In this document: positions 11,840-43,413 of the stretch, in pieces | Layout: every line of letters starts with the position of its first letter | How positions within the stretch are numbered: the stretch's first letter is position 1 | Assembly (NCBI GenBank): GCA_903856085.1 | Contig: CAIOAT010000024.1 | Coordinates: 3,180-67,179 of the forward strand | Length of the DNA: 64,000 bases | Origin: Candidatus Omnitrophota bacterium | Lineage (GTDB): Bacteria > Omnitrophota > Omnitrophia > Omnitrophales > Aquincolibacteriaceae | Direction of reading: 5' to 3' | The notes under the pieces: model-generated | Database searches by the model: none | Told to the model about the DNA's origin: nothing | What the model saw: only the letters and a program-made list of their open reading frames with translations | Position numbers and translations under genes: made by a program

Positions 11840-11863
11840 TCGGCCTCCATCATATCATAAAAC

Positions 11864-15260: not shown

Positions 15261-15287
15261 GAAAAAACTTAAAAAACACTGAATCAA

Positions 15288-15933: not shown

Positions 15934-17172
15934 TTATTTGATCGCCTGGGTAAGCGTAAGGATGGGAAGAAACATGGCTATCACAATGCCGCCGATCACA
16001 ACCCCAAGAAAAGCAACGATGAGCGGCTCAATTAAGGAAGTCAGCCCGGAAACCGCGGTATCCACCTGGGTATCATAAAAGTCCGCGATCTTTGTGAGCA
16101 TCTCTTCCAATTCTCCGGTCTCCTCCCCAATCGCGATCATACGAACGACCATCGAGGGAAAGATTTCGTTTTTTTCAAGCGGGCCGGCGATGCTTTCCCC
16201 GCGTTTGACAGAGCCCATAAGATCCGTGATGACTTTTTCGATGCGAGCATTCCCTGAAGTTCGAGAAACGATCTCCAAAGCCGCAAGGATCGCCACACCG
16301 CTACGCAACAACGTGGAAAGCGTGCGCGCAAATTTACTGATCGCTACCTTCAAAATAATCGGACCAAAAATGGGCATGCGAAGAGTAAAAGAATCCCAGG
16401 GCAAACGGCCCAACGGAGAGCTGATGAATTTCCGGAACAGAAAAACACCTCCGCCCAGGACAGCGAGAATCCACCACCAGTTGACCGCAAGATAATTGCT
16501 GATAGTAATCAGGATCTGCGTCGGCATGGGCAGCTTCGCCCCCAGGCCTTCAAAGATCGTCGCGAACTTCGGGATCACAAAGGCCAGCATGAAGAACGTG
16601 ATCATGAAAGCCATGATCGAAACGGCCGTCGGATACATCACCGCAGATTTAACCTTTTTTTGAAGCGCGCTGGATTTTTCAAAATATTGGGCCACGCGGT
16701 CCAGGATCTCTTGCAACTTCCCGCTCATCTCACCCGCGCGCACCATGTGAATAAAAAGCGCCGAAAAAACCTTTTGGTGCGCCTGCATGGCCTCAGAAAA
16801 ACTTTTACCAGTCTGCACGTCACTATGCATCCTCCAAAGAATCTTTCGAAATTTCTCCTTATCCACCTGCCCGGCGAGGATGTCTAGGGCCTGGATCAAA
16901 GGGATCCCCGCCGCGACAAGCGTAGCCATCTGCCTTGAAAAAATCACGAGGTCGTCCAGTTTGATGCCTCCGGATTTTCCCTGCCGAATCTTGGGGACTG
17001 TCCCCTTCTGAACACTCAGCATAGAAGATCCTTTTTTGACCTGCTCCACCCGAACAACCAGATAGTCCTGCGCCTTCAGCTGACGAACAAGATCTTGAGC
17101 ATCCTGGGCGTCCTGAACGCCCTTCAGATCTTTTCCCGACTTATCCTTGACCCAATATTCGAACGATGGCAT
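15934..17172 (-). CDS. pilC: Type IV pilus platform protein PilC (GspF family)
   Basis: 412 aa; two GspF-family repeats with three TM segments. Confidence 0.85.
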   Translation of the reverse strand: MPSFEYWVKDKSGKDLKGVQDAQDAQDLVRQLKAQDYLVVRVEQVKKGSSMLSVQKGTVPKIRQGKSGGIKLDDLVIFSRQMATLVAAGIPLIQALDILAGQVDKEKFRKILWRMHSDVQTGKSFSEAMQAHQKVFSALFIHMVRAGEMSGKLQEILDRVAQYFEKSSALQKKVKSAVMYPTAVSIMAFMITFFMLAFVIPKFATIFEGLGAKLPMPTQILITISNYLAVNWWWILAVLGGGVFLFRKFISSPLGRLPWDSFTLRMPIFGPIILKVAISKFARTLSTLLRSGVAILAALEIVSRTSGNARIEKVITDLMGSVKRGESIAGPLEKNEIFPSMVVRMIAIGEETGELEEMLTKIADFYDTQVDTAVSGLTSLIEPLIVAFLGVVIGGIVIAMFLPILTLTQAIK

Positions 17173-17177
17173 ATATT

Positions 17178-18872: not shown

Positions 18873-20638
18873 GGGGCACCGCCTCCGGGCTTCGCGCCGA
18901 CATCCGCGATCGTGACGCGAAAAACCTCATCGAGCGATGTTTCACCCGCCAGCGCCTTTTGGATCGCTGATTCTCGCAAGGTGTTCATCCCGTGCTCCCG
19001 GGCCCTCTCTTTAATGAGATCCGCGGACGCTCCTTGCATGATCATATCCAGAATATCCGGTTTCATTTCGAGGATCTCAGTGATCACGCTCCTGCCCTGA
19101 TAGCCCAGCTGGCGACACTGCGAACAGCCCTTGGCTTTCCAAAGCTGTATCTTTTTTTTCGGGTCTAAATTCAGGAATTTATACATATCAGGTTCGAGAT
19201 CGTATGCGACGCGACAACGCGGGCAGAGACGACGCACCAGCCGCTGGGCCGAGATCATTAGAACGGTCGACGCGATCAGGAACGGCTCAAGTCCAAGATT
19301 CGCCATGCGGGTCACGGAACTCACCGCGTCGTTGGTGTGGAGCGTGCTCAGAACAAGGTGGCCCGTCAGCGCGGCCTTCACGGCGATATCGAGCGTTTCC
19401 GCATCACGGATCTCTCCGATCAAAATAATGTCGGGATCCTGGCGCAAGATCGAACGTAGAGCCGCGGGAAATGTCAGCCCTATGGATTCGCGGACATTGA
19501 CCTGATTGATCCCGGACATCTGATACTCCACAGGATCCTCAACCGTTGTAATATTTACCTGCGGGGAATCCAAGTATTTGAGGACCGAATAAAGCGTAGT
19601 TGTTTTTCCGCTTCCGGTCGGTCCGGTCACAAGGATCATCCCATGCGGCTTCTTGGCCGAAGCCCGTATCACGCTCTGCTCCGTCTCTGTAAAACCGAGC
19701 TTTTGGATATCATGCGACTGAGCCCCAGTATCCAAAATGCGCAAGCAGACTTTCTCGCCGAAGCTGGACGGCAAGATAGAAACGCGCATGTCCACTTCCC
19801 GACCCTGCGTCCTGACTTTGAAACGGCCATCCTGGGGAACGCGGTGTTCCGCGATATTGAGCTGGCTCATGATCTTAACGCGGGAAACGATGGCGGCGCC
19901 AAAACTCTTTTGCGGTTTTACGATCTCCTCAAGGATTCCGTCAATGCGCATACGGATCCGGACAAAACCTTCCCAGGGTTCAATAAAAATATCACTCGCC
20001 CGGCGACGCACCCCCTCCACGAGCACCATATTGACAAGTTTCACGACCGGCGCCTGATTGGCCTGTTCCATGAGATCCGCGACCTTCTGCTGCTTATCCA
20101 GGGTCGCCTCACTTTCAACCATATTGGCAAGACTTACGAGATCTTCGGCACCCTCATCCAAAACAGGCTCTTCCGAGACACTGACCTCTCCCTGATAGGA
20201 TTTCTGTATGTATTCCTTGAGCTGAGAGTATTCCGCCACCGAAGTCCTGATGCGTTTTCCGGTAATCGCCTGAAGTTCATCCAAAACTTTTATGTTGGTG
20301 GGATTCGCCACCGCAACCGTCAAAGTCTTTTCAAGTAAGGATATCGGGAGGCACCCATAAGCCTCTGCGGTTTTCTTGGAAACGAGCTTTAGAACTTCTT
20401 TGTCAATGATCAGCATTTTGAGACTGACGAGACGATAACCGTATTCCTCACAAAGAACGCTCACGAGTTTTTTTTCGTCGCATTTCCCGGCCTGTTGAAG
20501 TATGTCTAGAAAATGCAGTTTGTTGGAGCTCTTGACCTGTTCCTGGAGTGCTTGTTGGAGATCGGCAGAGCTGACGACTCCCGCCCGCAGAAGAGCTTCT
20601 TTAAGATCCGGCAATGACGTTCGCATGGGTTCTGTCAT
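18869..20638 (-). CDS. pilB: Type IV pilus assembly ATPase PilB/GspE family (paralog 1)
   Basis: 589 aa; Walker A GPTGSGKTTTLYS, tetracysteine CPRC...CSQC, N-terminal GSPII-like domain. 4-nt overlap with paralog 2. Confidence 0.85.
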   Translation of the reverse strand: MTEPMRTSLPDLKEALLRAGVVSSADLQQALQEQVKSSNKLHFLDILQQAGKCDEKKLVSVLCEEYGYRLVSLKMLIIDKEVLKLVSKKTAEAYGCLPISLLEKTLTVAVANPTNIKVLDELQAITGKRIRTSVAEYSQLKEYIQKSYQGEVSVSEEPVLDEGAEDLVSLANMVESEATLDKQQKVADLMEQANQAPVVKLVNMVLVEGVRRRASDIFIEPWEGFVRIRMRIDGILEEIVKPQKSFGAAIVSRVKIMSQLNIAEHRVPQDGRFKVRTQGREVDMRVSILPSSFGEKVCLRILDTGAQSHDIQKLGFTETEQSVIRASAKKPHGMILVTGPTGSGKTTTLYSVLKYLDSPQVNITTVEDPVEYQMSGINQVNVRESIGLTFPAALRSILRQDPDIILIGEIRDAETLDIAVKAALTGHLVLSTLHTNDAVSSVTRMANLGLEPFLIASTVLMISAQRLVRRLCPRCRVAYDLEPDMYKFLNLDPKKKIQLWKAKGCSQCRQLGYQGRSVITEILEMKPDILDMIMQGASADLIKERAREHGMNTLRESAIQKALAGETSLDEVFRVTIADVGAKPGGGAP

Positions 20639-22562: not shown

Positions 22563-23758
22563 TCAAGCGCTTTCGTTGCAGCCTTGTCCTGGACCTGATG
22601 GCGCTCTCCCCAAAAAGTATGCTTCCAAGTCCGGACCGTTCCGTCGGGAGATGCAAGACCTATATAAACAAGACCGATCGGCTTTTTGGAACTGCCGCCG
22701 CCGGGCCCGGCGATTCCTGTAATGCCAAGGCCGAAACTTGAATCCATCCGAGTACGAACCGATCTCGCGAGCTGGAGAGCGACTTGAGCGGAAACCTCTC
22801 CGTGTTTCTTAATGAGCTTTTCCGGAACGCCAAGATTCGTTTTCACGGTTGCATGATACGCGACCACTCCCCCGCGAAAAAAGAAACTAGCGCCTGGACA
22901 GGCGGTAATCCGCGAAGCCAAAAGCCCGCCCGTGCAGCTTTCCGCGACAGCAAGCGTTTGCTTTTTTTTCGTCAGGATCTTTCCGATTACCACAGACAGA
23001 GGCGTTTCATCCCAGCCGTAGATCCGGTCCTTGAGCCGTGTCGCGATCTTCTTTTTGAGCCGACTGAGAACATCCGCTTGATCCACAAGAATTCGGATCG
23101 CGATTTCTCCGGCCGAGGGATAGATCCCAAAATCGAACCGATCCTCAAAAAAATCTTTCCCGAGTTTTTTCATCACATCCGGCTCCGAAATACCGGCCAT
23201 CCGCACGATCAGCCTCCGGCACTTAAAAAGATCCCCATATTTCTTCTTTAGAAACGGAAGCACCACATCAAAATACATATTCTGAAGCTCTGAGGGAACA
23301 CCGGGAAGCGCGATCGCGATCTTTGCCCCGATCTCGATCGAGAATCCAAGAGCGATCCCAAAACGATTAATGAGGGGCTTCGCATTCTCGGGATAAAACG
23401 CTTCGCGCTTCACAAGCGGAGGCACGCACTTGCCGTAACGCTTGTAGACCTTTTGGAGGCGTCTGTACTGTTGGGCTGAAAAAACAAGAGGGACTTTAAA
23501 ATGCGCGGCAATACCTTCACGGGTCACATCATCGGGCGTCGGCCCGAGCCCACCCATCATGATAACGAGATCCACGCGACGGAGAACTTCGCCAAGCCGG
23601 AAACGGATCGCTTCCTGCGAATCCGCGCAAACGCCGTGAGAGATGACCTCGAACCCAAGACTTGAGAGCTCACGTCCGAGAAACGCGGCATTGGTGTTAA
23701 CTACACTCCCGCGCAAAACTTCATTCCCGATCGAAAGGATCGCTGCGGTAGGCTTCAT
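22538..23758 (-). CDS. cinA: CinA family protein (competence/damage-inducible; NMN amidohydrolase-type)
   Basis: 406 aa; N-terminal MoCF-biosynthesis-like domain (AAILSIGNEVLRGSVVNTNAAFLGRELSSLGFEV) plus C-terminal CinA domain (AVAESCTGGLLASRIT). Confidence 0.85.
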   Translation of the reverse strand: MKPTAAILSIGNEVLRGSVVNTNAAFLGRELSSLGFEVISHGVCADSQEAIRFRLGEVLRRVDLVIMMGGLGPTPDDVTREGIAAHFKVPLVFSAQQYRRLQKVYKRYGKCVPPLVKREAFYPENAKPLINRFGIALGFSIEIGAKIAIALPGVPSELQNMYFDVVLPFLKKKYGDLFKCRRLIVRMAGISEPDVMKKLGKDFFEDRFDFGIYPSAGEIAIRILVDQADVLSRLKKKIATRLKDRIYGWDETPLSVVIGKILTKKKQTLAVAESCTGGLLASRITACPGASFFFRGGVVAYHATVKTNLGVPEKLIKKHGEVSAQVALQLARSVRTRMDSSFGLGITGIAGPGGGSSKKPIGLVYIGLASPDGTVRTWKHTFWGERHQVQDKAATKALECLWRKIR

Positions 23759-24768
23759 TTAAAGATCGCGAACAAAATGATCCAGGCGTAGAGCCCGGCG
23801 CCCAGATCGTCGGCCATAATACCCCAGTAACGCGGGATACGTTCAAGTGACCGCACGGGGAAAGGTTTAAACACATCAAAAGCGCGAAACAACACGAAAC
23901 CCAGAATCGCGGAATACCAAGTCAGCGGGATCAGCATGAACGTTATAAAAATACCGCAGACCTCGTCGACCACGATGTATTGCGGGTCCGGATCCGGATC
24001 CGTGATCCGCTCATACGCCAAAGCGCCCCACACGACCAAAAACACAAAAACCGCCCCGTAAAGTCCGCCACTCCACCTCGTCAGGAAAACCAGAAACACG
24101 CCAAGCAAACTTCCCCATGTCCCGGGAGCAATCGGGAACAACCCAACGCCCACCGCGAGAACGAACTTATTGAAGGCTTCGGATCCAAAATGAGCCCGTT
24201 GGTTCCAGAGGAACATGCCTCCGGAGATAAGCGTCAACGCGACGGTCGTGATCAAGAGGATTGGAAGAAGAAAATGGAGAATACCCGTCACCGCATCCAA
24301 CGAGGGATAAGGGTTCATTAGTAAATACACAAACGCGATCCAAACCGTGACCGTCTGAAAACCGAATTTCAGCTTCCCCATCATCTCCGCACCCAAGGAC
24401 TTCCCTTCGAGAAGCCATCCCGTCCGGCAAAACGTCACCAGGATCTCACGAATAAAGATCGGGACCACCCACCAAATGGAATAAAAATGAAGCGTGGCAA
24501 AGGTGGCCATCGGCGCCAAGATCAGGATCTTGTCATTAAAAGGGTCGATCCATCGCCCAAAGGCCGATTCAAGTTTGTACTGGCGGGCGATCCAGCCGTC
24601 GAAATAATCGGTGATCGCGCCAACCATGAACAAAATAAAGGCCCAGAGATGCGCCGACGGACTCGGCCGCAGGATCAAAAACGGCAGGGAAAGTCCGATG
24701 AAGCCCCGAGCAATGCTAAGCACGTTCGGGTTCAGAACGGAGTATTTATATTTGTCCCACAAGGTCAT
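23755..24768 (-). CDS. Fusion: CDP-alcohol phosphatidyltransferase (PgsA-like) + phosphatidylglycerophosphatase A (PgpA)
   Basis: N-terminal CDP-OH transferase motif DYFDGWIARQ...GRWIDPFNDK with multiple TMs. C-terminal PgpA signature PGTWGSLLGV ... DEVCG ... RAFDVFKPFP. Confidence 0.65.
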   Translation of the reverse strand: MTLWDKYKYSVLNPNVLSIARGFIGLSLPFLILRPSPSAHLWAFILFMVGAITDYFDGWIARQYKLESAFGRWIDPFNDKILILAPMATFATLHFYSIWWVVPIFIREILVTFCRTGWLLEGKSLGAEMMGKLKFGFQTVTVWIAFVYLLMNPYPSLDAVTGILHFLLPILLITTVALTLISGGMFLWNQRAHFGSEAFNKFVLAVGVGLFPIAPGTWGSLLGVFLVFLTRWSGGLYGAVFVFLVVWGALAYERITDPDPDPQYIVVDEVCGIFITFMLIPLTWYSAILGFVLFRAFDVFKPFPVRSLERIPRYWGIMADDLGAGLYAWIILFAIFK

Positions 24769-30607: not shown

Positions 30608-33600
30608 TTGGGATTTATGAAACAAACTCCTGCAAGTCAGAAAATGCAGCACGCCGCATCCTCCCCAAGGGAATTTCCCAGGAGCTCCTGGCTTACGCCG
30701 AAGCAAATTCCCGCGAAGTCGATGCAGAGACTTATCCTCACCTGCTTTTTTATCTCCGGAGCGTGCGGGCTCGTCTACGAGGTCGCCTGGCTCCGTGTCA
30801 TGGGACTCATTTTCGGCAATACCACGTTCGCCACGAGCACGGTACTGGCCGGCTACATGGCCGGTCTCGGCCTCGGAGCACTTTGGTGGGGTAAACGGAT
30901 TGACAAGGGCGGCAACCCGGTCAGAATCTATGCAAATCTAGAGGTTGGCATCGGTGTCTTCGCGTTGCTCACGCCGCTTATTTGGATACTTATTGACCTT
31001 TTAACGATCGGTTTTTACCGGTTCGTTTCTCCCGCATTTTTTTCCGCTCTTTTATTCAAATTCCTGCTCGCGTTCACAGCCCTCCTCATCCCGACGTTTC
31101 TCATGGGTGCGACACTCCCGGTCCTCTCAAAATACTTCGTCACCAAAGACGATGAGATTGCAAAACAAGTGGGACTTCTCTACGGGCTTAATACCTTGGG
31201 AGCCGTCCTGGGCGTACTCTTCAGCGGATTCATTGCACTTCAAACCTTCGGCGTCTGGCAAACGGTTTACCTGACCGGTTTTTTCAATCTGGTTATTTTT
31301 TGTCTCTGCCGGCGTTTCTTCGCTTCTCCCGAGGCGAACCCCCCGGTTATAAACAAGAAAATAGCACCTTTAAAAAATCCGGTGAGTCCCTCCCCTTCCG
31401 CCGCAGAGCAATCCTCTTTCTCACCGGCTGTCACATGGATCTTGCTTGCCGCGTTCGCGATCTCAGGCGCCGTCTCCATGATGTACGAGATCGCCTGGAC
31501 GCGCGTACTCGCCATGTCGCTGGGTAGTTCCGTCTATGCCTTCTCGCTCATGCTCGCGACTTTTCTTCTAGGCATTTCCATCGGCAGTTATTTATTCAGT
31601 CGCTTTTCGCATTTCTTCCGGACGAACCTGCAAACCTTCGCGATCCTACAACTGCTAACCGCGCTCTTTGGTCTTGGGGGCATCAACGTCTTTAATGATA
31701 TGCCTTATTATTTCGTCAGGATCTTCGCCGCCTCCCACAACTCCGACTTTTTACTGCAAGTCGGAAGGTTCTTCCTCTGCTCGATTGTCATGCTCCCGCC
31801 AACCCTCATGATCGGCGCCATGTTCTCGTGCTTCATCCACATCCTCCGCCGCTCACGACCTCTCGGAAGCGAGATCGGAGAAGCCTATTTTGCCAACACG
31901 ATCGGCACCATCCTCGGTTCCGTGCTAACAGGATTTTGTATCATTCCGCTCGTGGGAATCCAGCATACGCTTCTAATCGCCGCAGGGCTCAATGCCACAA
32001 TCGGTGCCTTGGCCTTCTTTCTTCAAAAAGAGCGGCTTAATTGGAAGCGTTACAGTATTCTCGCACTGACCGTCCTACTTCTTGCTTTCGGAATTCTCAC
32101 GATTCGCCCATGGAACCAAGGTTTCATCTCAAGCGAGCTGGCCGTCAAACCCGCCCCTGCCATCGGCATGACAAAGAACCAACTGCTCAATTCCATGAAA
32201 GAACAAGAGTTGGTCTTTTACAAGGAAGGACTGAGTGCAACGGTCGCAGTGAAACGGCTCCGCGATGATCTTTCGATGTCGGTCAACGGCAAGATCGACG
32301 CCTCGAATAAAGACACCTTCACACAATTTCTGCTGGGGCATCTTCCGATGGCACTTCACCCGAATCCGAAAAATGTATGCGTGATTGGTCTCGGGAGTGG
32401 TTCGACGGCCGCGGCCGTAGCTTCGTATCCAGTCGAGCACATCGACGTCGTCGAGCTTGAAAAAGAGGTCGTGAAGGCCGCAAGTTATTTCAAGGAATTG
32501 AACCGCAATGTCCTCGCCGACCCGCGCCTGAAAATCCATATCAATGACGGCCGGAATTTCCTCCTCCTCGATCCCACCCGATACGACGTCATTATTTCCG
32601 AGCCTTCGAACCCGTGGATGGCCGGTGTCGCAAACCTCTTTTCAATCGAACATTACAGGACCATGAAAAAGCGACTTGCCCCCGGCGGCATCGTCTGTCA
32701 ATGGCTACACGCTTACAGCATGTCTCCCGAGGATCTTCGCATGATCATCCGGACGTTCTCGGAAGTGTACCCGAACATCAGTCTTTGGACCTCGTATTAT
32801 CCGGATCTGATGCTCATCGGATCGAATGAGCCTCTCACACTTGACATGAAAAATTTCGAGAGGGCCTTCAAGATCCCAACGGTACGCGAAGACCTCGAAC
32901 CCAACGGCATCCGAAGCCCGATGGGATTTCTTTCAAACGCCTGGCTTTTTGATCCGGCCCTGCGGCTTCTAGCCCAAGACGCCAAGATCAACTCGGACAA
33001 TCATCCTTATCTTGAATTCTCTGCACCGCGAAACCTTTATAAAAACACCCTTCTCGAAAACTTTACGCTCCTGAACACACTCCGCAAATTTGAAGAGTTC
33101 CCCAAGGTTAAGGATCTCGAACCTCCGCAGGAAAAAAATGTCCTTTTTTATAATGCCCTGACTCGCGGATATCTTGCCAAACGTTTTAACGCCAATGCCG
33201 AATGGTCCCTGAGCAAAGCTGACAAGATCGATCCGGCAAACCTTGAAACCGCACTTTTAAGCGGCATTTTTTATTATCAGATCGGCGCCAAAGACAAAGC
33301 CAAGGAGATCCTCACGCAGGCGGTCGCAATCAACCCCTCTTCGGCTGAAACACAAGAGTATTTTGGATCAGCACTCCAGGATCTTGGGCAAATCCCCGGG
33401 GCGATCGAGGCTTTTCAAAAGGCTTCGGATCTTGCCCCCGAGAATATCCCCTACCTGGTCACACTCGCAAACGCACTCCTCAAGGCCGATCAAAATTTGC
33501 GGGCGCTTCAATGTTTCAATAAAGCTCTGGCGGCCCGGCCCGATGATTTTGACAGCTGGGTCAAGAAAGCCATGCTCGTCATGAATATGGGAACTTTGGA

Positions 33601-33892
33601 AGAAAAAACAAGGGTGACAAACAACATTCTCTTGCGATATCCCCGCTTCATGGGCGGCTACGAATGGTTGGGTGATCTTTTAGAAAAAAGCGGCCGGTCG
33701 GAAGAGGCCCTCGCGGTCTACCAGAAAATGGCCGGCATTTTCCCCAACGAATCCACGCCCTTCATCAATCTCGCACGCGCCAGCGACAATCTGGGACGTC
33801 CTCAGGACATGAAAAAATACCTGGCAAAAGCCGCCCGTCTCAATCCCGCCCTGGCCGATAATCCGGCCATCCAAAAGATTCTGCGCTCTTAA
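30608..33892 (+). CDS. Fused polytopic membrane domain / spermidine-synthase-like aminopropyltransferase fold / C-terminal TPR repeats
   Basis: 1094 aa; ~14 TM helices in the N-terminal half, SpeE-like Rossmann signature VCVIGLGSGSTAAAV...DVVELE...ISEPSNPW, C-terminal TPR repeats. ORF-track start 30608 is TTG; a likelier ATG is at 30722 (MQRLILTCFFISGACGLVYEVAWLRV). Confidence 0.7.
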   Translation: MGFMKQTPASQKMQHAASSPREFPRSSWLTPKQIPAKSMQRLILTCFFISGACGLVYEVAWLRVMGLIFGNTTFATSTVLAGYMAGLGLGALWWGKRIDKGGNPVRIYANLEVGIGVFALLTPLIWILIDLLTIGFYRFVSPAFFSALLFKFLLAFTALLIPTFLMGATLPVLSKYFVTKDDEIAKQVGLLYGLNTLGAVLGVLFSGFIALQTFGVWQTVYLTGFFNLVIFCLCRRFFASPEANPPVINKKIAPLKNPVSPSPSAAEQSSFSPAVTWILLAAFAISGAVSMMYEIAWTRVLAMSLGSSVYAFSLMLATFLLGISIGSYLFSRFSHFFRTNLQTFAILQLLTALFGLGGINVFNDMPYYFVRIFAASHNSDFLLQVGRFFLCSIVMLPPTLMIGAMFSCFIHILRRSRPLGSEIGEAYFANTIGTILGSVLTGFCIIPLVGIQHTLLIAAGLNATIGALAFFLQKERLNWKRYSILALTVLLLAFGILTIRPWNQGFISSELAVKPAPAIGMTKNQLLNSMKEQELVFYKEGLSATVAVKRLRDDLSMSVNGKIDASNKDTFTQFLLGHLPMALHPNPKNVCVIGLGSGSTAAAVASYPVEHIDVVELEKEVVKAASYFKELNRNVLADPRLKIHINDGRNFLLLDPTRYDVIISEPSNPWMAGVANLFSIEHYRTMKKRLAPGGIVCQWLHAYSMSPEDLRMIIRTFSEVYPNISLWTSYYPDLMLIGSNEPLTLDMKNFERAFKIPTVREDLEPNGIRSPMGFLSNAWLFDPALRLLAQDAKINSDNHPYLEFSAPRNLYKNTLLENFTLLNTLRKFEEFPKVKDLEPPQEKNVLFYNALTRGYLAKRFNANAEWSLSKADKIDPANLETALLSGIFYYQIGAKDKAKEILTQAVAINPSSAETQEYFGSALQDLGQIPGAIEAFQKASDLAPENIPYLVTLANALLKADQNLRALQCFNKALAARPDDFDSWVKKAMLVMNMGTLEEKTRVTNNILLRYPRFMGGYEWLGDLLEKSGRSEEALAVYQKMAGIFPNESTPFINLARASDNLGRPQDMKKYLAKAARLNPALADNPAIQKILRS

Positions 33893-34304: not shown

Positions 34305-34348
34305 ATAAATAAAAAAGACCCGGCGACGATCACCTCGTCACCGGGTCT
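34305..34348 (-). terminator. Rho-independent terminator of the GH94 giant gene
   Basis: Stem GACCCGGCGACG / CGTCACCGGGTC with a 7-nt loop; the single imperfect pair is a G-U wobble only in the minus-strand RNA. Followed on the minus strand by TTTTTTATTTAT. Lies 45 nt after the stop at 34393. Confidence 0.65.
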
Positions 34349-34392
34349 TATGAGCTCTACCTTATTCGCCTTAGGTTCCCACTGCCTGGAAA

Positions 34393-37300
34393 TTAAAGAG
34401 GCTTGGGCCTGATCGGACTCTTGGACACGTCCCGAGTCACGCTGATCACTTTAAGCGCGCCGCGAGGTTTATCCAGATCATTCGGAAGCACGAGTTTGTT
34501 TTTTACGACGAGTGCTCCGACCACACCTTCCATCGCCTGCCGTAACATCCAGCCGGCAGCTCCGGTGTATCCGTGCCAGATCATACGACCCGGTTCAAAC
34601 GTGGTCAAAATATCGGCCGACTGCTTATTGGGTTGACCGCCATAGATCTCAATTTCATGCATATGCGCGATCGGCGAGACCTTAAGCCACAACCGGTACG
34701 CGGTCTCGCGATATTTCTCTGCGTTCGCCTGATCCCCACGCTTTTCGTATTCTTCCGCCAAGAGACGCGCCGCTCTTACGAGCCACTGCACGCCGTGACA
34801 ATACATACCGTTCTCCCGAACGCCTTCCGGATATTTGCTGCTGCGTCCCAGATACGGTTTTGTGTCTTCGCGCAAGGCCGGCCACCCGAGCAGGATTGCG
34901 TTGTCCTTCTCAAGAACCTGCAAGGCCGTGTTGAAGATCGTCACGCCACGCTCGAAATTGATACCCGACATGACCGACCAGGCCGCGGTCAGGGCATCGA
35001 TCTCCCACACCCCGCTGCCCTTCACACCGATCTCGGTCCCGTCATCGTGAAAAGCACGCAGATACCGGTCGCCGCGCCACGTTTTTTCAAGGGCCACTTT
35101 CAGGGCTTCCATTTTTTTTACGTAATACGCTTTTTTCGCATCGCCTTCTTTTTGGCCGATGATATCAACCATCTCTTTCAAGATGTAGTAGAGGAAGAAG
35201 CCGAGCCAAACGCTCTCGCCATGGCCTTCGCTCCCGATCTCATCCAATCCATCATTCCAGTCGCCGACCCCCATGAGCGGCAGGCCATTCTTGCCTGAAC
35301 GCTGTTTGATCACAAGATCGATCGACTTCATGCAATGCTTATAGAGTGTATCCGCACGCGTCGTCCGGTGATACAAATGTCCCCAGCCTTGTTTGTTCTT
35401 CGGCAAAGGCGCAAATGGAAACTCCGAGATCAGATAGGCCGCCATTTCATCCAGGATCGTCTGGTCCCCCGTCGCCCGGACATATTCGGCGGCGCCCCAC
35501 GCCAGCCAAAGCGGGTTGTCGGAAGCATGAGACCGGCATGAGAACGACGTGCGTCCATCGGTCAGCGTGAAGAACCAGTGGTTCACATCGCCTTCCACGA
35601 ATTGCTGGGACGCATGCAAAAGGATCTGTTTGCGCGCCAGAGCCGGATCCACCCAGATCAGGTTCACAGTATCCTGGAGCTGGTCGCGGAAACCGAAAGC
35701 ACCGCTCGTCTGATAGAACCCGCGCCGTGCCCAAATACGCTCGGCCAACGCCTGATACTTTAGCCAGTTCTGATACCGGTCGAACTCCGGCTGATTGGTT
35801 TCGACCTTGACCGTTCCCATCAACCCGAGCCACCACTGGCGGGTTCCCTCAAGCTCCTTGCGAACGGTCTCGAGGTTTTTATACTTCTGAACCAAGGTGA
35901 CCGCTTTTTTGTGATCTTCGGCCTGGCCCAGCACGATGGCGACTGTACATTCGCCATGAGCCGGGATCTCAACGGTCCCCACAAAACCCGCGATCTGTCC
36001 GTCATCGGTCAACTGTGTCGCATCCGGTCCGGCATTTTCCACCATGAAAGGACGTTTGACGCCACGACCCGATCCGAAGAAACGGCCGCGCTTTGTCTCC
36101 ACACAGTCTGCGGGAATCGACATGGAAGCGAACGCCCATCCGGAACGGAAGATATTGCGACAATTCGCGAAATACAAGGCATCCGAAGCCTTATCGTGAC
36201 GCATTTCAAGCGGTCCCGATCGCTCCGGCTGGAAGGAAAGCACCATCTGAAAATATGGCGCGATCCTCATGCGGCGAGGCTTATCCTCGTCATTTTTCAG
36301 CGTCAGCAAATACACACCGAGCGGATCCTCGGGCGGCACATAAACGGTCAACTGCGAAGAAAGATTCCCATCCTTCATGCGGAAGATCGCCGTCCCGTCC
36401 ACACTGAACTCCGACTCGTGCTTGGCATTATTGTCATTCAAAGGCTGGTAGGTCGGCGAATACCATTCGTCACGATCCGGATCATAAAGATAGATCGCTT
36501 CCGTCGGTGTTTCCTTCGTCACCGTATCCGGCCAATCCGGCGTCAAACGGTTCTGTTGGGAATTCCCGTTGCACGAGGTGTGAAGCCCACGGTTCGTCAC
36601 CATCGTCGAATGGACCGCATTCGACATCGCATGGTCAAAAGGACGCGGCGTATAAGGCGTCAACACCTTCAATTTGTTGCCGTTATCCAGATATTCGTAA
36701 TAAGGTTGCGGCGTTCCCGGCGGAATCTCTCCGTGACCGATCAAAAGCGATCGGTGCTTCTTTTCCGAAAGCACTGCGCCCTGCGCCGGGTTCGGTTTGA
36801 GATATTTCGCGATCATCTCAAGCGCCACCTTCTTGTTCTTGGAATAACCGATCATCAGGCGCACCGTCGCGGTCGCCTTGGGCGCGACAAGAGCGTTCAC
36901 CATCAAACTGCCGATCGGATCGAACGTCGGATAGGCCGCCGTATCTTTGGCCGGCAAAAAATCCAGCGTTTCAAGACTGCGCGGCGCCCAAAGACTCTGA
37001 CCGCGGCCGATGAAATCCACACGTCCGGAGTGAAAACCTTCCGGTGCTACATCCGAGGCCAAAAGCCCCATAGATTTCGTGCTCTTCTGCCACGACAAGA
37101 TCGCATTCGATCCGGCCACGTATTCCATTTCCGGGTACAAACGCGCATACTGCGTGTGGAAACGATCATGCAGGCCGCCGTTTAAAACCCACTCGAGGTA
37201 CGGAACGACCTTGAGTTGCCGCGACCTTTCGGTCAGGTTCTCGATCGTGATCTTCCAAAGTTCTGCCGTGCTGTCCATATCCGGAAGACTGATCTCGATC

Positions 37301-40300
37301 GTGGTCTTCACGCCATGGTTCGTGTTTGTAACTTTCAGGACATCGTCACAACGCTCCACCCGGGACGCCTCAAACTGCTCGGTTGGAAAATTTCCTGCGA
37401 CCGGCCAAGCCTGGGATTTTCCGTCCGGACCCGCCGCCGTGTCCAAGAGAAAGAGGACTCGACCGCAAGGATCAATCTGATCATATGAACGGCGGCTGAT
37501 ATCACATTCCTTGCCGAGGAGTTCGCTGTAAATTTCACCGTTTTCCTTGGCCACTACTTTGTATTCGCGGTTCGCCAATTCACTACTTTGGATGCGGCGT
37601 GCGCGAGACCTGCGCCGCAGCAAGCGGATCACGAATGAAAATCCCGTACAAACCAGGATACACAAACCAATGAGAACCAGCATTTGCGGCAACGATAGAG
37701 AATGTAAGTATGGGATCAACCCTTTTCCTCTTGCGGCATTTTGGAGCTTCTCGGCCGAACTCCACACTTCATCCCACTGCTCGCCGCGCGGGATGTAAAA
37801 AGGGATCAAGAGCGGGGCCCATGTCGCGAACCGCTTCACGCCTTCAGGGATGTACCGTTGTGCTGCCGCCTTGCCAATGAATTTCGAGACTTTCTCATCC
37901 AGCTTATCCATGCCGAGAAAACTCAAATTCACCAGCGTTGCGACGCGCAGTCCCATGTGATCCATCCAGATCAGGATCCGGAACGCATCGAACGCCAGGA
38001 TCCAGATGAACATCTTGAGACTCCAGGCCACGAACGCAGGCGCTGACATCGTGATATTGTTGTAAATGGCAAAAAGCGTCCGGATCGCACCGTCCTGGTT
38101 GTACCAAGTCGGGTTCGGCATCATGCGAAGGAACGTATAAATGATCGGAGACATCCAGAGACCCCACCGCAGCACATGGATCATCAGCTCGCTTAACTGG
38201 GCCAGGCCCGCTTTCGAAAAGAAAAATTTGATCGGCGTTTTATCTTTATCAAAGAACGCCTGCATGAACACCTTGTTCACGGCAAAGAGCCACGTAGCCA
38301 CCGACCATTTGATGACGCCATCCAACGACTCGGTAAAAAGCAATTTGACGCCGCCCGGACAATACCCCAAGTCCATTTGACCCCATTTACTGATCAAGAC
38401 CGGCTGGACGTAATGTCCCAGGGAATTCAAATAGGGATAGGTTGTTGTGGACATTTCTCCCAGCGAATTGAAAGCGGGATACGACGCATATTGCGCCGCG
38501 GAAAAATGAGCGGTGACATAAAGCTTGAATTTATAGAGAATGACCGCGACCTGCGGAACATCCATATAAAAAGCAACGGCACTCCCGAGAAAAACGCCGA
38601 GAAGTGAATCGACAAAATAAAGCCGCCAGGACTGAACCTTCCCGCAGCCCCGTGAGGCATAGTACACATCCCTCAGAAAACTTATGCCGCCCGAGGCCAT
38701 CAGACCGATCAAAAGGCCAACGAGAACCCGCTCCGGCATCGCTTTTCCGATGTAACCTTGTGCGAGCAGATAGGCAAAACCGAATCCGGCGACGGCTCCT
38801 CGAGCATAAAGCGTTTTGCTGCGATAGCTGTAGCGCGTCCGTTCAAAGAACGGGAGACTGCCATCAAAGGTCTCGATAATGGTCTTCACGAACGGAAACA
38901 CCAGAGCCCCAGCGAGGGTCCCGATCACATAAGGAAAGGAAGCCATGAATTTGAGCCCCGCAGGAGCTGCAAAGATCATGGAAAGCGCGTAGAGGATTGC
39001 CATCAGGATGCCGCTGTAGGCCATGCCTTTTTTCATGCCGGTCGTAACATTCTTAAAAATGTTGTCCTCGGAAGGCGCGATACGCTTGCCGCCATCCAGA
39101 AGGATCCCGGTAATAAGATAAATTTCTCCCCACAATCCGCCGAAAGAAAGCGCCGTCGCCAGAACAGAAATAAGAGCCCTCAATACCTCCGGCAATCCGG
39201 CCACCCCGGAGAGCGATCCCAAATTAGCAATGGAGGGAGCTAACACTACCCCTAAAGAAATCAGCAGCAGGAACAAATGAGCCTTGACCGTCTGAAGTAA
39301 CTTCCCTTTTGTCACGTACCCGATCCCGGCGGCAAGAAGTTCGTTGAAGACGAACACGACCAAAAGCCTGCCAATGCCCTCGAGAAGCGCGGGCCACGCG
39401 GCCAAAAGTCCAAACGTAGCGCTGTAGGTCATGCTCTGCAAGAGAGTCACGTTTTCCAAAAGAAGCAGCCAACCTACGAGGTACGGCGTCCCCACGATTA
39501 AAGCTCCGGGGACCGTCTTCAAATTTTTTCCGGACGAAGCGAACTCATGGGCATTGAAGATCTGATAGATCAAGAACGCGACCGTGGCCGTGAGCTTATT
39601 GATCATGAGCAGGTGGCTCCACATCGTGGGAGCCTGCAAGAGTTCCAAGCGGCTTGAGGATGCCGCGAGAATTCCAGTCACTAGGACATTCTGGAAAACC
39701 TCAACCGGCGTCAGATGTTTTCCAGTGAATTGATGCTTCAAACATTCCGCGATCAAGGCCCCCACCACTCCCGCGATAAGAATGCCCGTCATAGAACCCA
39801 GGCTTAAAATCTCTGCGGCCCCTAGCGCATAAATCCCTACCGCCGTCCCCAGGATCAATACGGTGATAGCGCCGTAGAGAAAATCCTTTTTAAGCCTCGC
39901 TAGGATCGAGGTTTCTTTCGGGGAAACAATATCAGGACCTTTGTCGCTTGCCGACCGAGACTGAACCCCCACCCGATTTTGGCCAGAGAGTTTGCTCGCG
40001 AACGCGGCCAAAAGCGCCAAAAGGAATGCGAGAATAAGGATCGATCCGAATTTTATAGCGATAAGGTATTTCTTGAAAAACGTGGTCTTACAGAAATCAA
40101 ACCCAAGATACAAGGTTCCCTTGATGGAATTCGCGTGACCTTTGGGGCTGATAATGAAGTTCACTTCTTTGAGTTCACCGATCTCCTTCCAGTGAATTGA
40201 TTTCTGGATCGCATTCCAGCCCGGCTTCAGACAGAGCGGAATCATCTGGGTATTCGCCGACCCGATCACCTCTGCATTGATCGAGAGCTGGTTAAGCTGA

Positions 40301-41355
40301 GATGCCTCAAGCGCCCGGAGACCGAATTCCAGAGTATTCACTTGTGCGCCGGTTAGATCTGCGGGAAATTTTTTTGTCCAGACGGTGATCGAAGACCCTG
40401 ACGACAATGTATATCCCAGATCATAAACATCTTTTTTCGATTCTTCATCAAAGGAAAAAGTAATAACGCCCTTGGCCTCTCCGTCATTGGACACTCCCTT
40501 TTCTCCCGCATCTAAGAGACCGAACGAGGACCGGGCGGGCGATACTGAAACTTGAGCGGGGCTGGCCGGCAATGCCTTCACGGCCGCAGGAACCTGGACC
40601 GAACGCGCGGTGGGTGCTAGCTTGGCAATCACGGGAGCTTGGACTTCAGGAACTGCCGCAGGCACTGCGGTTGTCCGGGGAGCAAACGTCGCACCGGTCT
40701 TTGCGACACCGGTCGCCATTTTTTTTGTCACAGTATTCGAAGCGGTTTTCGCCGCTGCGGGCAGGACGGCGGAAGGCGTCACGGGCTTGACCACCGCCAC
40801 TTGCTGAATGAACTCCAAAGAAAATGCCAAAGTTCCCTTAACGGTCGCGGTGGCACCCTGGGGGCTGACCACAAAAGCGACTTCTTTCAAAACGCCGACT
40901 TTGGTCCAATCGAGCTTCTCCTGCAGAGGATTCCATCCATTCTTGAGGCGAAGAGGGATTATTTGAACCCCCTGAGCTCCGCGCACCTCCATTGTCACGG
41001 AAACTTCGGTCATTTGCGTTGCAAGAAAAGCCTTGATGCCGATCTTGACCAGATTAGCCGAAGAAGCTGTGAGTTCTGCTGGAAAGCTCTTGACCCACGC
41101 CGTGGCGACGGCACCCTGAGGAATTGAATAATCAAATTCCAGGATATCCTTTTTGATCGCTTCGTCGAAAGTCGGAGTCAACGTGCCTTTGGCTTCTGCC
41201 GTGACCGTCGTTCCGCGCTCGCGTGCGTCAAGCAGCTTGAACGTGGAAGCCGCCCAAGCGCCGGTTGTGACCGTGAGGCTCAGGAGAAGGACCGCCAAGA
41301 CTCCGCAAGCAGGGATTGAAGCAAAAGATCGTAGGTTTTTGAAAATAGAGGGCAT
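34393..41355 (-). CDS. Giant (2320 aa) membrane protein: signal peptide, two tandem extracytoplasmic repeat domains, ~20-TM region, cytoplasmic GH94-like glycoside phosphorylase domain
   Basis: Signal peptide ending AWA. Internal duplication (residues ~38-190 vs ~285-430) separated by a P/A-rich linker. Hydrophobic helices across ~37630-40068. C-terminal ~1070 aa with GH94-like elements including GVGDWNDGLD at 35253-35270 and the (alpha/alpha)6-type motif GFRDQLQDTV. Confidence 0.75.
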   Translation of the reverse strand: MPSIFKNLRSFASIPACGVLAVLLLSLTVTTGAWAASTFKLLDARERGTTVTAEAKGTLTPTFDEAIKKDILEFDYSIPQGAVATAWVKSFPAELTASSANLVKIGIKAFLATQMTEVSVTMEVRGAQGVQIIPLRLKNGWNPLQEKLDWTKVGVLKEVAFVVSPQGATATVKGTLAFSLEFIQQVAVVKPVTPSAVLPAAAKTASNTVTKKMATGVAKTGATFAPRTTAVPAAVPEVQAPVIAKLAPTARSVQVPAAVKALPASPAQVSVSPARSSFGLLDAGEKGVSNDGEAKGVITFSFDEESKKDVYDLGYTLSSGSSITVWTKKFPADLTGAQVNTLEFGLRALEASQLNQLSINAEVIGSANTQMIPLCLKPGWNAIQKSIHWKEIGELKEVNFIISPKGHANSIKGTLYLGFDFCKTTFFKKYLIAIKFGSILILAFLLALLAAFASKLSGQNRVGVQSRSASDKGPDIVSPKETSILARLKKDFLYGAITVLILGTAVGIYALGAAEILSLGSMTGILIAGVVGALIAECLKHQFTGKHLTPVEVFQNVLVTGILAASSSRLELLQAPTMWSHLLMINKLTATVAFLIYQIFNAHEFASSGKNLKTVPGALIVGTPYLVGWLLLLENVTLLQSMTYSATFGLLAAWPALLEGIGRLLVVFVFNELLAAGIGYVTKGKLLQTVKAHLFLLLISLGVVLAPSIANLGSLSGVAGLPEVLRALISVLATALSFGGLWGEIYLITGILLDGGKRIAPSEDNIFKNVTTGMKKGMAYSGILMAILYALSMIFAAPAGLKFMASFPYVIGTLAGALVFPFVKTIIETFDGSLPFFERTRYSYRSKTLYARGAVAGFGFAYLLAQGYIGKAMPERVLVGLLIGLMASGGISFLRDVYYASRGCGKVQSWRLYFVDSLLGVFLGSAVAFYMDVPQVAVILYKFKLYVTAHFSAAQYASYPAFNSLGEMSTTTYPYLNSLGHYVQPVLISKWGQMDLGYCPGGVKLLFTESLDGVIKWSVATWLFAVNKVFMQAFFDKDKTPIKFFFSKAGLAQLSELMIHVLRWGLWMSPIIYTFLRMMPNPTWYNQDGAIRTLFAIYNNITMSAPAFVAWSLKMFIWILAFDAFRILIWMDHMGLRVATLVNLSFLGMDKLDEKVSKFIGKAAAQRYIPEGVKRFATWAPLLIPFYIPRGEQWDEVWSSAEKLQNAARGKGLIPYLHSLSLPQMLVLIGLCILVCTGFSFVIRLLRRRSRARRIQSSELANREYKVVAKENGEIYSELLGKECDISRRSYDQIDPCGRVLFLLDTAAGPDGKSQAWPVAGNFPTEQFEASRVERCDDVLKVTNTNHGVKTTIEISLPDMDSTAELWKITIENLTERSRQLKVVPYLEWVLNGGLHDRFHTQYARLYPEMEYVAGSNAILSWQKSTKSMGLLASDVAPEGFHSGRVDFIGRGQSLWAPRSLETLDFLPAKDTAAYPTFDPIGSLMVNALVAPKATATVRLMIGYSKNKKVALEMIAKYLKPNPAQGAVLSEKKHRSLLIGHGEIPPGTPQPYYEYLDNGNKLKVLTPYTPRPFDHAMSNAVHSTMVTNRGLHTSCNGNSQQNRLTPDWPDTVTKETPTEAIYLYDPDRDEWYSPTYQPLNDNNAKHESEFSVDGTAIFRMKDGNLSSQLTVYVPPEDPLGVYLLTLKNDEDKPRRMRIAPYFQMVLSFQPERSGPLEMRHDKASDALYFANCRNIFRSGWAFASMSIPADCVETKRGRFFGSGRGVKRPFMVENAGPDATQLTDDGQIAGFVGTVEIPAHGECTVAIVLGQAEDHKKAVTLVQKYKNLETVRKELEGTRQWWLGLMGTVKVETNQPEFDRYQNWLKYQALAERIWARRGFYQTSGAFGFRDQLQDTVNLIWVDPALARKQILLHASQQFVEGDVNHWFFTLTDGRTSFSCRSHASDNPLWLAWGAAEYVRATGDQTILDEMAAYLISEFPFAPLPKNKQGWGHLYHRTTRADTLYKHCMKSIDLVIKQRSGKNGLPLMGVGDWNDGLDEIGSEGHGESVWLGFFLYYILKEMVDIIGQKEGDAKKAYYVKKMEALKVALEKTWRGDRYLRAFHDDGTEIGVKGSGVWEIDALTAAWSVMSGINFERGVTIFNTALQVLEKDNAILLGWPALREDTKPYLGRSSKYPEGVRENGMYCHGVQWLVRAARLLAEEYEKRGDQANAEKYRETAYRLWLKVSPIAHMHEIEIYGGQPNKQSADILTTFEPGRMIWHGYTGAAGWMLRQAMEGVVGALVVKNKLVLPNDLDKPRGALKVISVTRDVSKSPIRPKPL

Positions 41356-41612
41356 TTCGTCCGTCCTATTTTTAAAGGGTTTAAAAACTTTTCAAAATTT
41401 TTTTGCGTTCTTGAAAACGGGTGATTAAAAAAAGACAAAACCGCTTTAATTTCTGGTCCAAAACCACTTTTAAAGAAGAGGCGTATTATACCAAATTACC
41501 GTTTTTTCCCAAGTTTTTGTTTGAAGGAACGGGAAAGACCCGGGAAGGGGTCACGGAGAACCCATCCTCTCGAAATCAGGAGCGGAAATGATGAAATTCC
41601 ACTTTCGGATTT

Positions 41613-42092
41613 TTGTGTTCGCCGTTCCCCACGCCCTGTCCCCTGCGGCCTGTTCAATCCTTGCATTCTCAGGCCTCATTGATTAATATTCTCGGCATGG
41701 AACACGATAAGATCCGCCTTCTTCAATTTATGGTCTGCAAAGACTTTGAAATCGGCGAGCAGGACTGCTACACGGCCAATCGCGTGAGAAGCAATCTCCA
41801 CGTTCCATCCTTTCCTTATCATTTCGAAAAACTTTACGCCGTAACCTGCTGGCGCAAGGACAAAATGTTCCACAAAGAAGTGATCGAGTACTCCACCGAG
41901 GACGGACGCATCGTAAAGACGCCCCCCATGGACATCGAACCCATCACCTCAAGCGTTCTTTTCCGCTGGCATAAACACGCATTCCCCACGGACCTCGAGA
42001 TCAAAGAAAACAGCCTCCTTAACATCCGCGTCATCCTCGACTGGAAAGTCAATTTTGAATCCTATCTCATGATTGAAAAACGACCGGACTGA
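41613..42092 (+). CDS. Hypothetical protein (start uncertain)
   Basis: 159-aa ORF; no recognisable domain. The true start may be the internal Met at 41697 (MEHDKIRLL...). It overlaps in another frame a 32-codon ORF (41588-41686) that has a strong AGGAG RBS. Confidence 0.3.
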   Translation: MCSPFPTPCPLRPVQSLHSQASLINILGMEHDKIRLLQFMVCKDFEIGEQDCYTANRVRSNLHVPSFPYHFEKLYAVTCWRKDKMFHKEVIEYSTEDGRIVKTPPMDIEPITSSVLFRWHKHAFPTDLEIKENSLLNIRVILDWKVNFESYLMIEKRPD

Positions 42093-43347
42093 AGCGCTCA
42101 TGCCCCCTTTTGAGCCTCCGCACTGGACCCCGGAATTGTGGATGGCATTTCCCTTCATCGGATTGCTGTTCTCGATCGCCGTTCTACCCCTTGTCGCTCA
42201 CCGTTTTTGGAACCGCCTCAAAAATCAGACCGGAGTCTCGCTAGTCTTTGCGGTACCGATCGTCATGATCTACGCCCAACACTCCCCGCACCTTCTCGGA
42301 GAACAACTTCGTGATTATCTTTCGTTCGTCCTTCTCTTATCGTCACTTTACATCGCATCCGGCGGCATCCACATCGCCGGCGGACTGAATAGTTCGCCCC
42401 TCGCGAACGCCGCCCTGTTGGGCCTCGGCGCTGTGATCAGCAATTTCATCGGGACCACCGGCGCGAGCATGGTCCTGATCCGTCCGCTGCTGCGCGCCAA
42501 CGCCCACCGCAAACACCACGCCCACCTGCCAATTTTTTTCATTTTCCTTGTAAGTAATATCGGCGGCGCGCTGACGCCGCTGGGCGATCCCCCGCTTTTC
42601 CTCGGATTTTTGAGCGGCGTCCCTTTCTTTTGGACGCTCAGGCTTTTCCCCCTTTGGCTCGTGTCTGTATCGGTCCTGCTGCTCGTCTTTTATTTCACCG
42701 ACCGAACCATTCTCGCACTGGACAAAACATCTCCCAAAGCCCTCGTGTCCGGTGATCCCGTAAAAGTACGTGGAAAAAGGAATCTCTTCTGTTTTGCGTT
42801 GATCATCGTCGCAACCTTTTTGCCAATCCCCTACCGCGAAGCACTCATGATCGTCGCAGCCATCGTCTCCGTCTGGATCACTCCTAAAAGTTACCACACT
42901 GCGAATGGATTCAGCCATGTCCCTATTTTGGAAGTCGCAGTCATCTTTCTGGGCATCTTTATCACCATGCTTCCGGCGCTGGAACTGCTGAGAAACTATG
43001 GAGGAGAGCTGGGCGTGACACAACCATGGCAATTTTTTTGGTCGGCCGGAGGCTTTTCTTCCTTTCTGGATAATGCGCCGACTTATATGACATTCGCGGC
43101 ACTGGCGCAAGGCTTGCACCTGGGTGGACCGTACATGGGAATGCCTGAAACTCTTCTTTTGGCTATCAGCGCGGGTGCGGTATTCTTCGGGGCCATTACT
43201 TATATCGGGAACGCACCGAACTTCATGGTCCGCTCCATTGCCGAACACTCCGGATGGAAAATGCCGAGTTTCTTTGGTTATATGCTTTGGTCGATAGGTA
43301 TCCTGATACCGCTGTTTCTCCTTATTACCCTGATATTCCTCCGCTGA
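42073..43347 (+). CDS. ArsB/NhaD-superfamily ion/anion permease
   Basis: 424 aa; ~11-12 TM helices, duplicated-hairpin motifs (GALTPLGDPP ... YIGNAPNFMV) typical of the ArsB/NhaD/CitMHS permease fold. Track start is TTG; an in-frame ATG is at 42100. Confidence 0.5.
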   Translation: MKNDRTEALMPPFEPPHWTPELWMAFPFIGLLFSIAVLPLVAHRFWNRLKNQTGVSLVFAVPIVMIYAQHSPHLLGEQLRDYLSFVLLLSSLYIASGGIHIAGGLNSSPLANAALLGLGAVISNFIGTTGASMVLIRPLLRANAHRKHHAHLPIFFIFLVSNIGGALTPLGDPPLFLGFLSGVPFFWTLRLFPLWLVSVSVLLLVFYFTDRTILALDKTSPKALVSGDPVKVRGKRNLFCFALIIVATFLPIPYREALMIVAAIVSVWITPKSYHTANGFSHVPILEVAVIFLGIFITMLPALELLRNYGGELGVTQPWQFFWSAGGFSSFLDNAPTYMTFAALAQGLHLGGPYMGMPETLLLAISAGAVFFGAITYIGNAPNFMVRSIAEHSGWKMPSFFGYMLWSIGILIPLFLLITLIFLR

Positions 43348-43413
43348 CGTTCTACGGCGCAAGGTGGCTGCGGACGGCGCACTCTATAAGTCTTTCGCCG
43401 TACTTCGATCGGA

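Follow-up and report, generated by a model that had tools for sequence, protein, structure and literature searches.

What does a phosphorylase of the kind built into Cgs, the synthase of cyclic beta-1,2-glucan, do when it sits on a completely different membrane chassis? The question is raised by a gene of a Candidatus Omnitrophota bacterium, the minus-strand open reading frame (ORF) 34393..41355 in a 64,000-nt stretch of contig CAIOAT010000024.1 (hereafter the window). In the periplasm, beta-1,2-glucans serve as osmoprotectants, and they also play a part in host interaction; their enzymology opened up recently with families GH144, GH162, GH186, GH189 and GH192-194 and with the structure of Cgs. 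The 2320-aa product of the ORF, 100% identical to a protein (P0001) on a 144-kb metagenome contig, combines exported repeats, a large membrane module and a GH94 phosphorylase, and it is not a cyclic glucan synthase. An initial annotation made from the sequence had delimited the ORF exactly as we find it, and had imagined a different kind of glucan-processing or transport machine. That idea fits all the evidence presented here, in particular a novel, ultra-conserved membrane module and the presence of beta-1,2-glucanase-clan genes in related loci; a channel would be a possible component of such a machine.

The phosphorylase is the part of the protein with recognizable relatives. Scans with hidden Markov models bore out its GH94 signatures: PF06165 matches two stretches (best at aa 1570-1810, E=3e-62, 210.8 bits for a Pfam cut-off of 23) and PF17167 matches aa 1841-2280 (E=7e-65, 219.8 bits for a cut-off of 27), both far above the curated thresholds. 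The three motifs recognized initially are all present, GFRDQLQD at aa 1888-1895 (nt 35671-35694, minus strand), NHWFF at aa 1925-1929 and the catalytic-acid motif GDWND at aa 2031-2035, the last lying at nt 35251-35265 (minus strand), a few bases away from the 35253-35270 first assigned to it. A further motif, RENGMYCH (nt 34795-34818, minus strand), aligns with the RENGxYxH of Cgs, which in GH94 enzymes presumably binds phosphate. Searches with the single sequence reach Cgs (8rf9/8rf0) at E=1e-109 and cellobiose phosphorylases at only about 1e-37; with a 57-sequence family profile the values are 8e-222 (742 bits) for Cgs, 1.6e-84 for cellobiose phosphorylase and 5.8e-7 (30 bits) for the free beta-1,2-oligoglucan phosphorylase LpSOGP (5h3z). 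The GP2 and GP3 subdomains together align to Cgs 2069-2781. Two residues of the Cgs phosphorylase (GP), D2393 and the catalytic acid D2528, were mutated in the cryo-EM study of that enzyme (PMC10901819). A lack of GH94 catalytic residues on alignment would have refuted the initial annotation, but both equivalents are aligned and present here, D2393 with the D of SGAFGFRDQLQD and D2528 with the second D of GDWND; no complete family member has lost the catalytic acid, and two of them read GDWDD. The linker between GP1 and GP2 measures about 78 aa, as compared to about 276 aa in Cgs, hence the Rossmann-like RFL subdomain (Cgs 1847-2012) is absent. Judged by these alignments, the module appears to be an intact, cytoplasmic GH94 phosphorylase of the Cgs-GP clade. 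Membership in this clade, together with the SGL-clan neighbours described below, would make it a beta-1,2-specific enzyme acting by phosphorolysis.

Similarity to Cgs/NdvB, which the initial annotation had extended to the overall layout, is real for the phosphorylase and does not hold for the rest of the protein. Cgs is built from an N-terminal domain, a bundle of 6 transmembrane (TM) helices, GT84, a cyclase of the GH189 family with a GH144-like (alpha/alpha)6 fold (CY; residues 979-1535) and GP, with its soluble parts in the cytoplasm (PMC10901819). Neither the full-length family profile nor a profile of the TM part produced any alignment to Cgs outside GP. The protein lacks PF10091, the Pfam model for the cyclase/GH144 fold, and nothing aligned to Cgs 979-1535, domains of this sort being confined to separate secreted proteins in some related loci; this missing cyclase domain had been overlooked initially, as had the exceptional conservation of the membrane module. 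The UDP-coordinating and catalytic aspartates and RW motif of GT84 (D527, D624, D739 and R773 in A. tumefaciens) were not found. As already remarked in the initial annotation, no DxD or QxxRW motif occurs in a glycosyltransferase (GT) context: there is no [QR]xxRW, the only DxD of the TM region is a non-conserved DKD, and a VLRW sits inside a predicted membrane helix. A GT84 or GT2 domain between the helices would have made the protein a conventional Cgs homologue, and none was detected by Pfam or NCBIfam in aa 1-1300 or by PDB searches with the TM part, which is almost all-helical in the predicted structure; NCBIfam gave no match in the whole protein. Resemblance to the ArnT/PglB-type GT-C enzymes, or to a BcsA/OpgH-like TM channel with GT-A domain, was likewise not found. 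The strong similarity of the GP module to that of Cgs is what a conventional Cgs would have in its favour, but the lack of GT84, CY and RFL, the absence of PF10091, the 15-19 TM helices instead of 6 and the exported repeats make this identity so improbable that we reject it, and Cgs is effectively excluded.

The part that most clearly sets the protein apart is its polytopic membrane region (aa ~430-1253), with a core module of about 770 aa. No other part of the protein, the enzyme domain included, is as well conserved as this module, with 46 invariant columns across 57 sequences that diverge to about 31% identity, and the motifs of its ultra-conserved block are found in all 56 of the long family members. 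W, Y, D, R, H and N are frequent among the invariant residues, which lie largely inside predicted membrane helices, W742, R1063/W1064, D1132/H1133/R1137 and N1143 being examples. Such polar and aromatic residues would be expected of a polar pathway or of an intramembrane active site rather than of an anchor, and the module may be imagined as a channel or pore. Searches for known relatives were negative: the TM region, as a single sequence and as a profile, has no match among all PDB sequences, including full-length Cgs (8rf0/8rf9); seven divergent sequences restricted to the TM part, scanned against Pfam at permissive settings, returned scattered single-member noise only; and comparison of the thirds of the module with hhalign detected no internal duplication or pseudo-symmetry. 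An AlphaFold2 model from a 57-sequence alignment (pLDDT 89.1, pTM 0.86) is helical nearly throughout apart from small hairpins; it was used in place of an earlier model from a 7-sequence alignment (pLDDT 62), which was too poor to interpret. This confident helical prediction excludes a GT-A or GT-B fold, and the module, so modelled, appears to be a new family and a new fold.

Helix prediction leads to a count close to the approximately 20 TM segments first proposed, although the total is somewhat lower. After TM1 comes a KR-rich loop, and as far as aa 931 the chain runs on through another 13 clear helices of alternating direction, whose inside loops are KR-rich. The next, conserved segment (aa 932-1214) contains long, weakly hydrophobic helices (1002-1036, 1048-1075, 1105-1121 and 1123-1160), and the last TM helix (aa 1222-1253) leads through the sequence RRRSRARR to GH94. 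This amounts to 14 clear helices, the final one and, within the conserved block, 2-4 long helices of weak hydrophobicity; as the protein is N-out/C-in, the total has to be odd and is predicted at 15-19. Family members that lack the repeats start at TM2, so that the core itself is N-in/C-in and TM1 is merely a connector for the exported repeats.

About 390 residues at the N-terminus are predicted to be exported. The two repeats seen in the initial annotation are real, sharing 43% identity over 148 aa (E=2e-50), and are preceded by a signal peptide; their copy number varies from 0 to 4 across the family. A profile of the repeats has no carbohydrate-binding module (CBM) or other match in Pfam and PDB. 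They are homologous, nonetheless, to the CBM11/CBM30-like heads of secreted SGL-clan proteins encoded in related loci (hhalign 92%, E=5.6e-7), heads which themselves match CBM_11 (E=0.007) and CBM30 (E=8e-5) weakly. Sharing these domains with secreted glucanases would imply that the repeats make direct contact with external glucan.

This combination is not restricted to one genome. At least 581 species genomes contain the core made of the TM module and GH94, clustering at 50% gives 554 representatives, and the TM module is fused to GP1-GP2-GP3 in every full-length member. Hundreds of species in Omnitrophota, Elusimicrobiota, Planctomycetota, Chlamydiota and Proteobacteria belong to the family. 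Omnitrophota account for most of the closest 80 loci, which by itself would point to an Omnitrophota origin of the window, with others from Elusimicrobiota, Planctomycetota, Auribacterota, Sumerlaeota, Chlamydiota and FCPU426; forms of about 1800 aa without repeats are found in Burkholderiales, Beijerinckiaceae, Hyphomicrobiales and deltaproteobacterial metagenome-assembled genomes (MAGs). Cultured carriers exist among Isosphaeraceae (Paludisphaera borealis PX4, strain SH-PL62 and Aquisphaera giovannonii), where the gene is on plasmids. The P. borealis PX4 protein (WP_076351704.1, 1993 aa, 'hypothetical protein') is about 50% identical over its full length; its gene, BSF38_RS29260, is carried by plasmid PALBO1 (locus L081, NZ_CP019083.1 56209-64301), a TM-GH94 plasmid shared with SH-PL62 and Aquisphaera. 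A 2017 paper on Isosphaeraceae gives the plasmid gene just as 'a GH94 phosphorylase' and reports a GT84 gene in P. borealis, that is, a canonical Cgs besides TM-GH94. Since both are present in this species, they are not redundant. Current annotations of family members read 'cyclic glucan synthetase', 'GT36' or 'hypothetical protein', and we found no description of a TM-GH94 family without GT84 in the searchable literature. The GH94 part, then, joins a known clade, but neither for the overall architecture nor for the membrane module is there a description in Pfam, in the PDB or in the literature that could be searched.

Gene context was surveyed in 80 related loci. No neighbour is common to all of them, the maximum being 20 of 80. 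These 20 loci contain adjacent, same-strand genes for secreted proteins of ~670-770 aa that associate a CBM11/CBM30-like head with PF10091, a member of the SGL clan, whose enzymes characterized so far are all specific for beta-1,2-glucan (PMC12102758). Two kinds can be distinguished, one similar to GH144 endo-beta-1,2-glucanases (XcSGL 8xul, E=8.6e-67; CpSGL, 4e-42), the other closest to the Cgs cyclase/GH189 (8rf9, E=1.4e-41; TiCGS domain 8wy1, E=4.7e-41). In an Omnitrophota subclade (L028, L030, L037, L042 at 235-22490, L064 and L071), a conserved same-strand cluster of about 22 kb encodes, in order, a solute-binding protein, a soluble 790-aa GH94 enzyme equally near Cgs GP and cellobiose phosphorylase, a response regulator, a histidine kinase, one or more secreted SGL-clan proteins, of which one joins a CBM to a GH144-like domain, a TPR/FecR protein, TM-GH94, a secreted protein that joins a CBM to a GH189-like domain, two ABC permeases, a 252-aa product without known function, a ROK protein and an M48 protein. 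We regard this cluster, which belongs to an uncultured phylum, as a candidate beta-1,2-glucan locus. In Paludisphaera, the co-transcribed downstream gene overlaps TM-GH94 by 4 nt and encodes a 704-aa secreted protein weakly like EeSGL1 (GH192), with no Pfam match.

A separate observation concerns the GH189-like protein of these clusters (L071:15475-17496, plus strand; equivalents in 20 loci). It is free-standing, bears a signal peptide, and its catalytic domain is nearest to the Cgs cyclase (E~1e-41). An exported enzyme of this type would imply transglycosylation or cyclization of beta-1,2-glucan outside the cytoplasm.

How these elements might operate together can be approached through several readings. 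The one that we prefer, tentatively, is an inner-membrane conduit coupled to phosphorolysis of beta-1,2-glucan, working in the import direction. The repeats would capture periplasmic beta-1,2-glucan outside the membrane, the membrane module would thread the chain, non-reducing end first, to the phosphorylase, and the latter would shorten it processively, glucose units leaving as glucose-1-phosphate. Uptake would thereby be coupled to an energy-saving breakdown, a mirror image of synthase-translocases such as BcsA. We lean to this reading because the conserved locus looks catabolic, because phosphorylases usually run in the direction driven by inorganic phosphate (Pi), cytoplasmic Pi normally favouring phosphorolysis, and because a true Cgs coexists with TM-GH94 in P. 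borealis. Several points weigh against it. Phosphorylases are reversible, so sequence cannot give the direction; beta-1,2 specificity is deduced from clade and neighbours; the topology of the conserved block at aa 932-1214 is ambiguous; and with an ABC importer already encoded in the catabolic loci there is less need for another route of uptake. No glucan-related neighbour is present in the window, in its closest relatives or in alphaproteobacterial MAGs, and from this orphan status the fusion appears functionally self-sufficient. There is also a substantial chance that the new-fold conduit performs a reversible 'phosphorolytic group translocation', in which glucan would be brought in as glucose-1-phosphate, or extruded when glucose-1-phosphate is abundant, without ATP or nucleotide sugars.

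The opposite direction is the essence of a biosynthetic machine, in which GH94 would extend the chain at its non-reducing end with glucose from glucose-1-phosphate and the membrane module would extrude it, or in which the module would be a new polymerase whose product length is controlled by GH94, as happens in Cgs; the secreted enzymes of the SGL clan could then trim or cyclize the periplasmic product, by analogy with OpgH and OpgG/OpgD. The closest relative of GP is by far the GP of a synthase, the frequent orphan status of the gene fits a self-sufficient synthase, and some loci encode the exported GH189-like proteins, the GH189 domain of Cgs being able by itself to cyclize linear beta-1,2-glucan (PMC10834661). 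Periplasmic beta-1,2-glucanases are moreover known as biosynthetic partners in E. coli (OpgG/OpgD) and Xanthomonas (PMC11842490), which also tells against a strictly catabolic interpretation of the loci. We nevertheless consider synthesis, although a serious rival, less likely than import, as the best-conserved neighbourhood has a catabolic appearance (solute-binding protein, ABC permeases, ROK, soluble GH94, GH144 endoglucanase), the Pi balance of the cytoplasm argues the other way, no GT fold and no nearby sugar-nucleotide gene or NdvA-like exporter is seen, and P. borealis already has its canonical GT84 Cgs. Alternatively, the membrane module could be a sensor, a regulator or a docking platform, for instance one that senses osmotic or envelope conditions or that cooperates with the ABC importer, and would position or gate a phosphorylase acting only on cytoplasmic oligosaccharides supplied by other transporters. 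ABC importer genes in the same cluster are in line with such a role, as is the precedent of Cgs, whose TM domain forms no export channel and whose GP works in the cytoplasm (PMC10901819). This we regard as unlikely: some 770 aa with 46 invariant residues, conserved above the enzyme, are more than anchoring or sensing usually needs, the extracytoplasmic repeats are shared with secreted glucanases, and no member has the module without a fused GP.

Should the glucan conduit prove true, it would represent a new principle for the movement of polysaccharides across a membrane, and could account for the harvesting or deployment of glucans by Omnitrophota that have small genomes and may depend on hosts; phosphorolytic group translocation, if true, would be a transport-coupled carbohydrate mechanism undescribed in any organism. 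The cultured carriers P. borealis PX4, A. giovannonii and SH-PL62 make the question directly testable.

Table 1. Features of the TM-GH94 gene and its flanks, in window coordinates
Feature	Residues (aa)	Position (nt)	Strand	Remarks
Whole ORF	2320 in total	34393..41355	-	stop codon 34393-34395; uninterrupted
Promoter-like site TTGGGA-16-(TG)TATAAT		41485..41512	-	~130 bp 5' of ATG; consensus match only
Signal peptide (predicted)	1-35	41251..41355	-	hydrophobic core 7-38, ends AWA|AS; N-terminus conserved among homologues
Extracytoplasmic repeat 1	36-190	40786..41250	-	similarity to repeat 2
Pro/Ala-rich linker	191-275	40531..40785	-	poorly conserved
Extracytoplasmic repeat 2	276-425	40081..40530	-	similarity to repeat 1
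TM1	431-456	39988..40065	-	connector helix bringing chain back to cytoplasm; missing from repeat-less members
Core membrane module	484-1253	37597..39906	-	N-in/C-in, ~14-18 helices; not assigned to any known family or fold
Ultra-conserved block	990-1210	37726..38388	-	VLRWGLWMSPII (1061-), TWYNQDG (1083-), DHMGLRVATLVNLSF (1132-), TWAPLLIPFY.PRG
GP1, first supersandwich-type subdomain	1256-1565	36661..37590	-	aligns to Cgs 1563-1793
GP2, GH94 supersandwich, PF06165	1570-1810	35851..36660	-	Pfam; Cgs alignment
GP3, GH94 catalytic (alpha/alpha)6, PF17167	1841-2280	34396..35850	-	Pfam; Cgs alignment
Intrinsic-terminator-like hairpin		34315..34349	-	15-bp stem, 9 GC, T tail; ~45 bp past stop codon

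In the window, the GH94 gene appears monocistronic, since its neighbours are convergent or divergent and unrelated in function: an MFS-spermine synthase-TPR fusion, a CitMHS transporter, a PAS kinase, type IV pilus/type II secretion system (T2SS) genes and a 6840-aa ORF. No operon partner and no SGL-clan gene was found within the window, and an inspection of the gene neighbourhood for an NdvA-like exporter, a check suggested in the initial annotation, was negative.

Some of these neighbours deserve a description of their own. The adjoining giant ORF (43414-63936, minus strand, 6840 aa) has four small Pfam domains only, a GNAT acetyltransferase (~aa 1183-1239), an FHA domain (~2258-2306), an APH-type phosphotransferase (2583-2821) and a Ham1-like NTP pyrophosphatase (~aa 4913-5103), leaving more than 90% of its length without assignment; its content looks cytoplasmic and enzymatic, whereas published Omnitrophota giants are lectin- or dockerin-rich. 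The type IV pilus/T2SS-like cluster (10178-20638, minus strand) comprises a secretin, PilM, a T2SS-F platform protein and two tandem T2SS-E/MshEN ATPases, in agreement with reports of secretion or pilus loci close to Omnitrophota giant genes. Convergent with the GH94 gene, the ORF at 30608-33892 (plus strand) encodes a 1094-aa three-part fusion of an MFS-like N-terminus, a spermine/spermidine synthase and a C-terminal TPR region. A 337-aa ORF (23755-24768, minus strand) fuses a CDP-alcohol phosphatidyltransferase to a PgpA phosphatidylglycerophosphatase domain. The 339-aa ORF at 42343-43362 (minus strand), with no Pfam match, is probably spurious, as it falls inside the plus-strand CitMHS_2 gene at 42073-43347 (E=6e-144).

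The protein can finally be placed among known systems. With Cgs it shares a large inner-membrane organization ending in a cytoplasmic GH94 of GP1-GP2-GP3, a module that has its closest sequence relative in Cgs and conserves the D2393/D2528 equivalents; it differs by having no GT84, CY domain or RFL insert, by its 15-19 helices from an unrelated module in place of a compact 6-TM bundle, and by an exported N-terminus with two repeats where Cgs is cytoplasmic except for its TM helices. Soluble 1,2-beta-oligoglucan phosphorylases (SOGPs; Lin1839 and LpSOGP, 5h3z) of beta-1,2-glucan utilization loci are also GH94 enzymes with an extra N-terminal domain, and related loci place the TM-GH94 gene beside an ABC sugar importer and beta-1,2-glucanases, in the manner of known SOGP clusters (PMC3960220); SOGPs, however, show remote similarity only, at the profile level, and are free cytosolic proteins without membrane module or exported repeats. 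Large all-helical polytopic structure with conserved acidic and aromatic residues recalls GT-C enzymes such as ArnT, from which the protein is separated by the lack of any sequence match and of lipid-linked sugar genes nearby. The likeness to BcsA and to OpgH with OpgG/OpgD is conceptual: a cytoplasmic glucose-transferring site is joined to a multi-helix membrane domain, with periplasmic glucan-processing partners and putative carbohydrate-binding modules. Unlike BcsA and OpgH, it has no GT2/GT-A domain and no QxxRW or TED context, and catalysis would be carried out by a phosphorylase using Pi and glucose-1-phosphate, instead of a nucleotide-sugar transferase.

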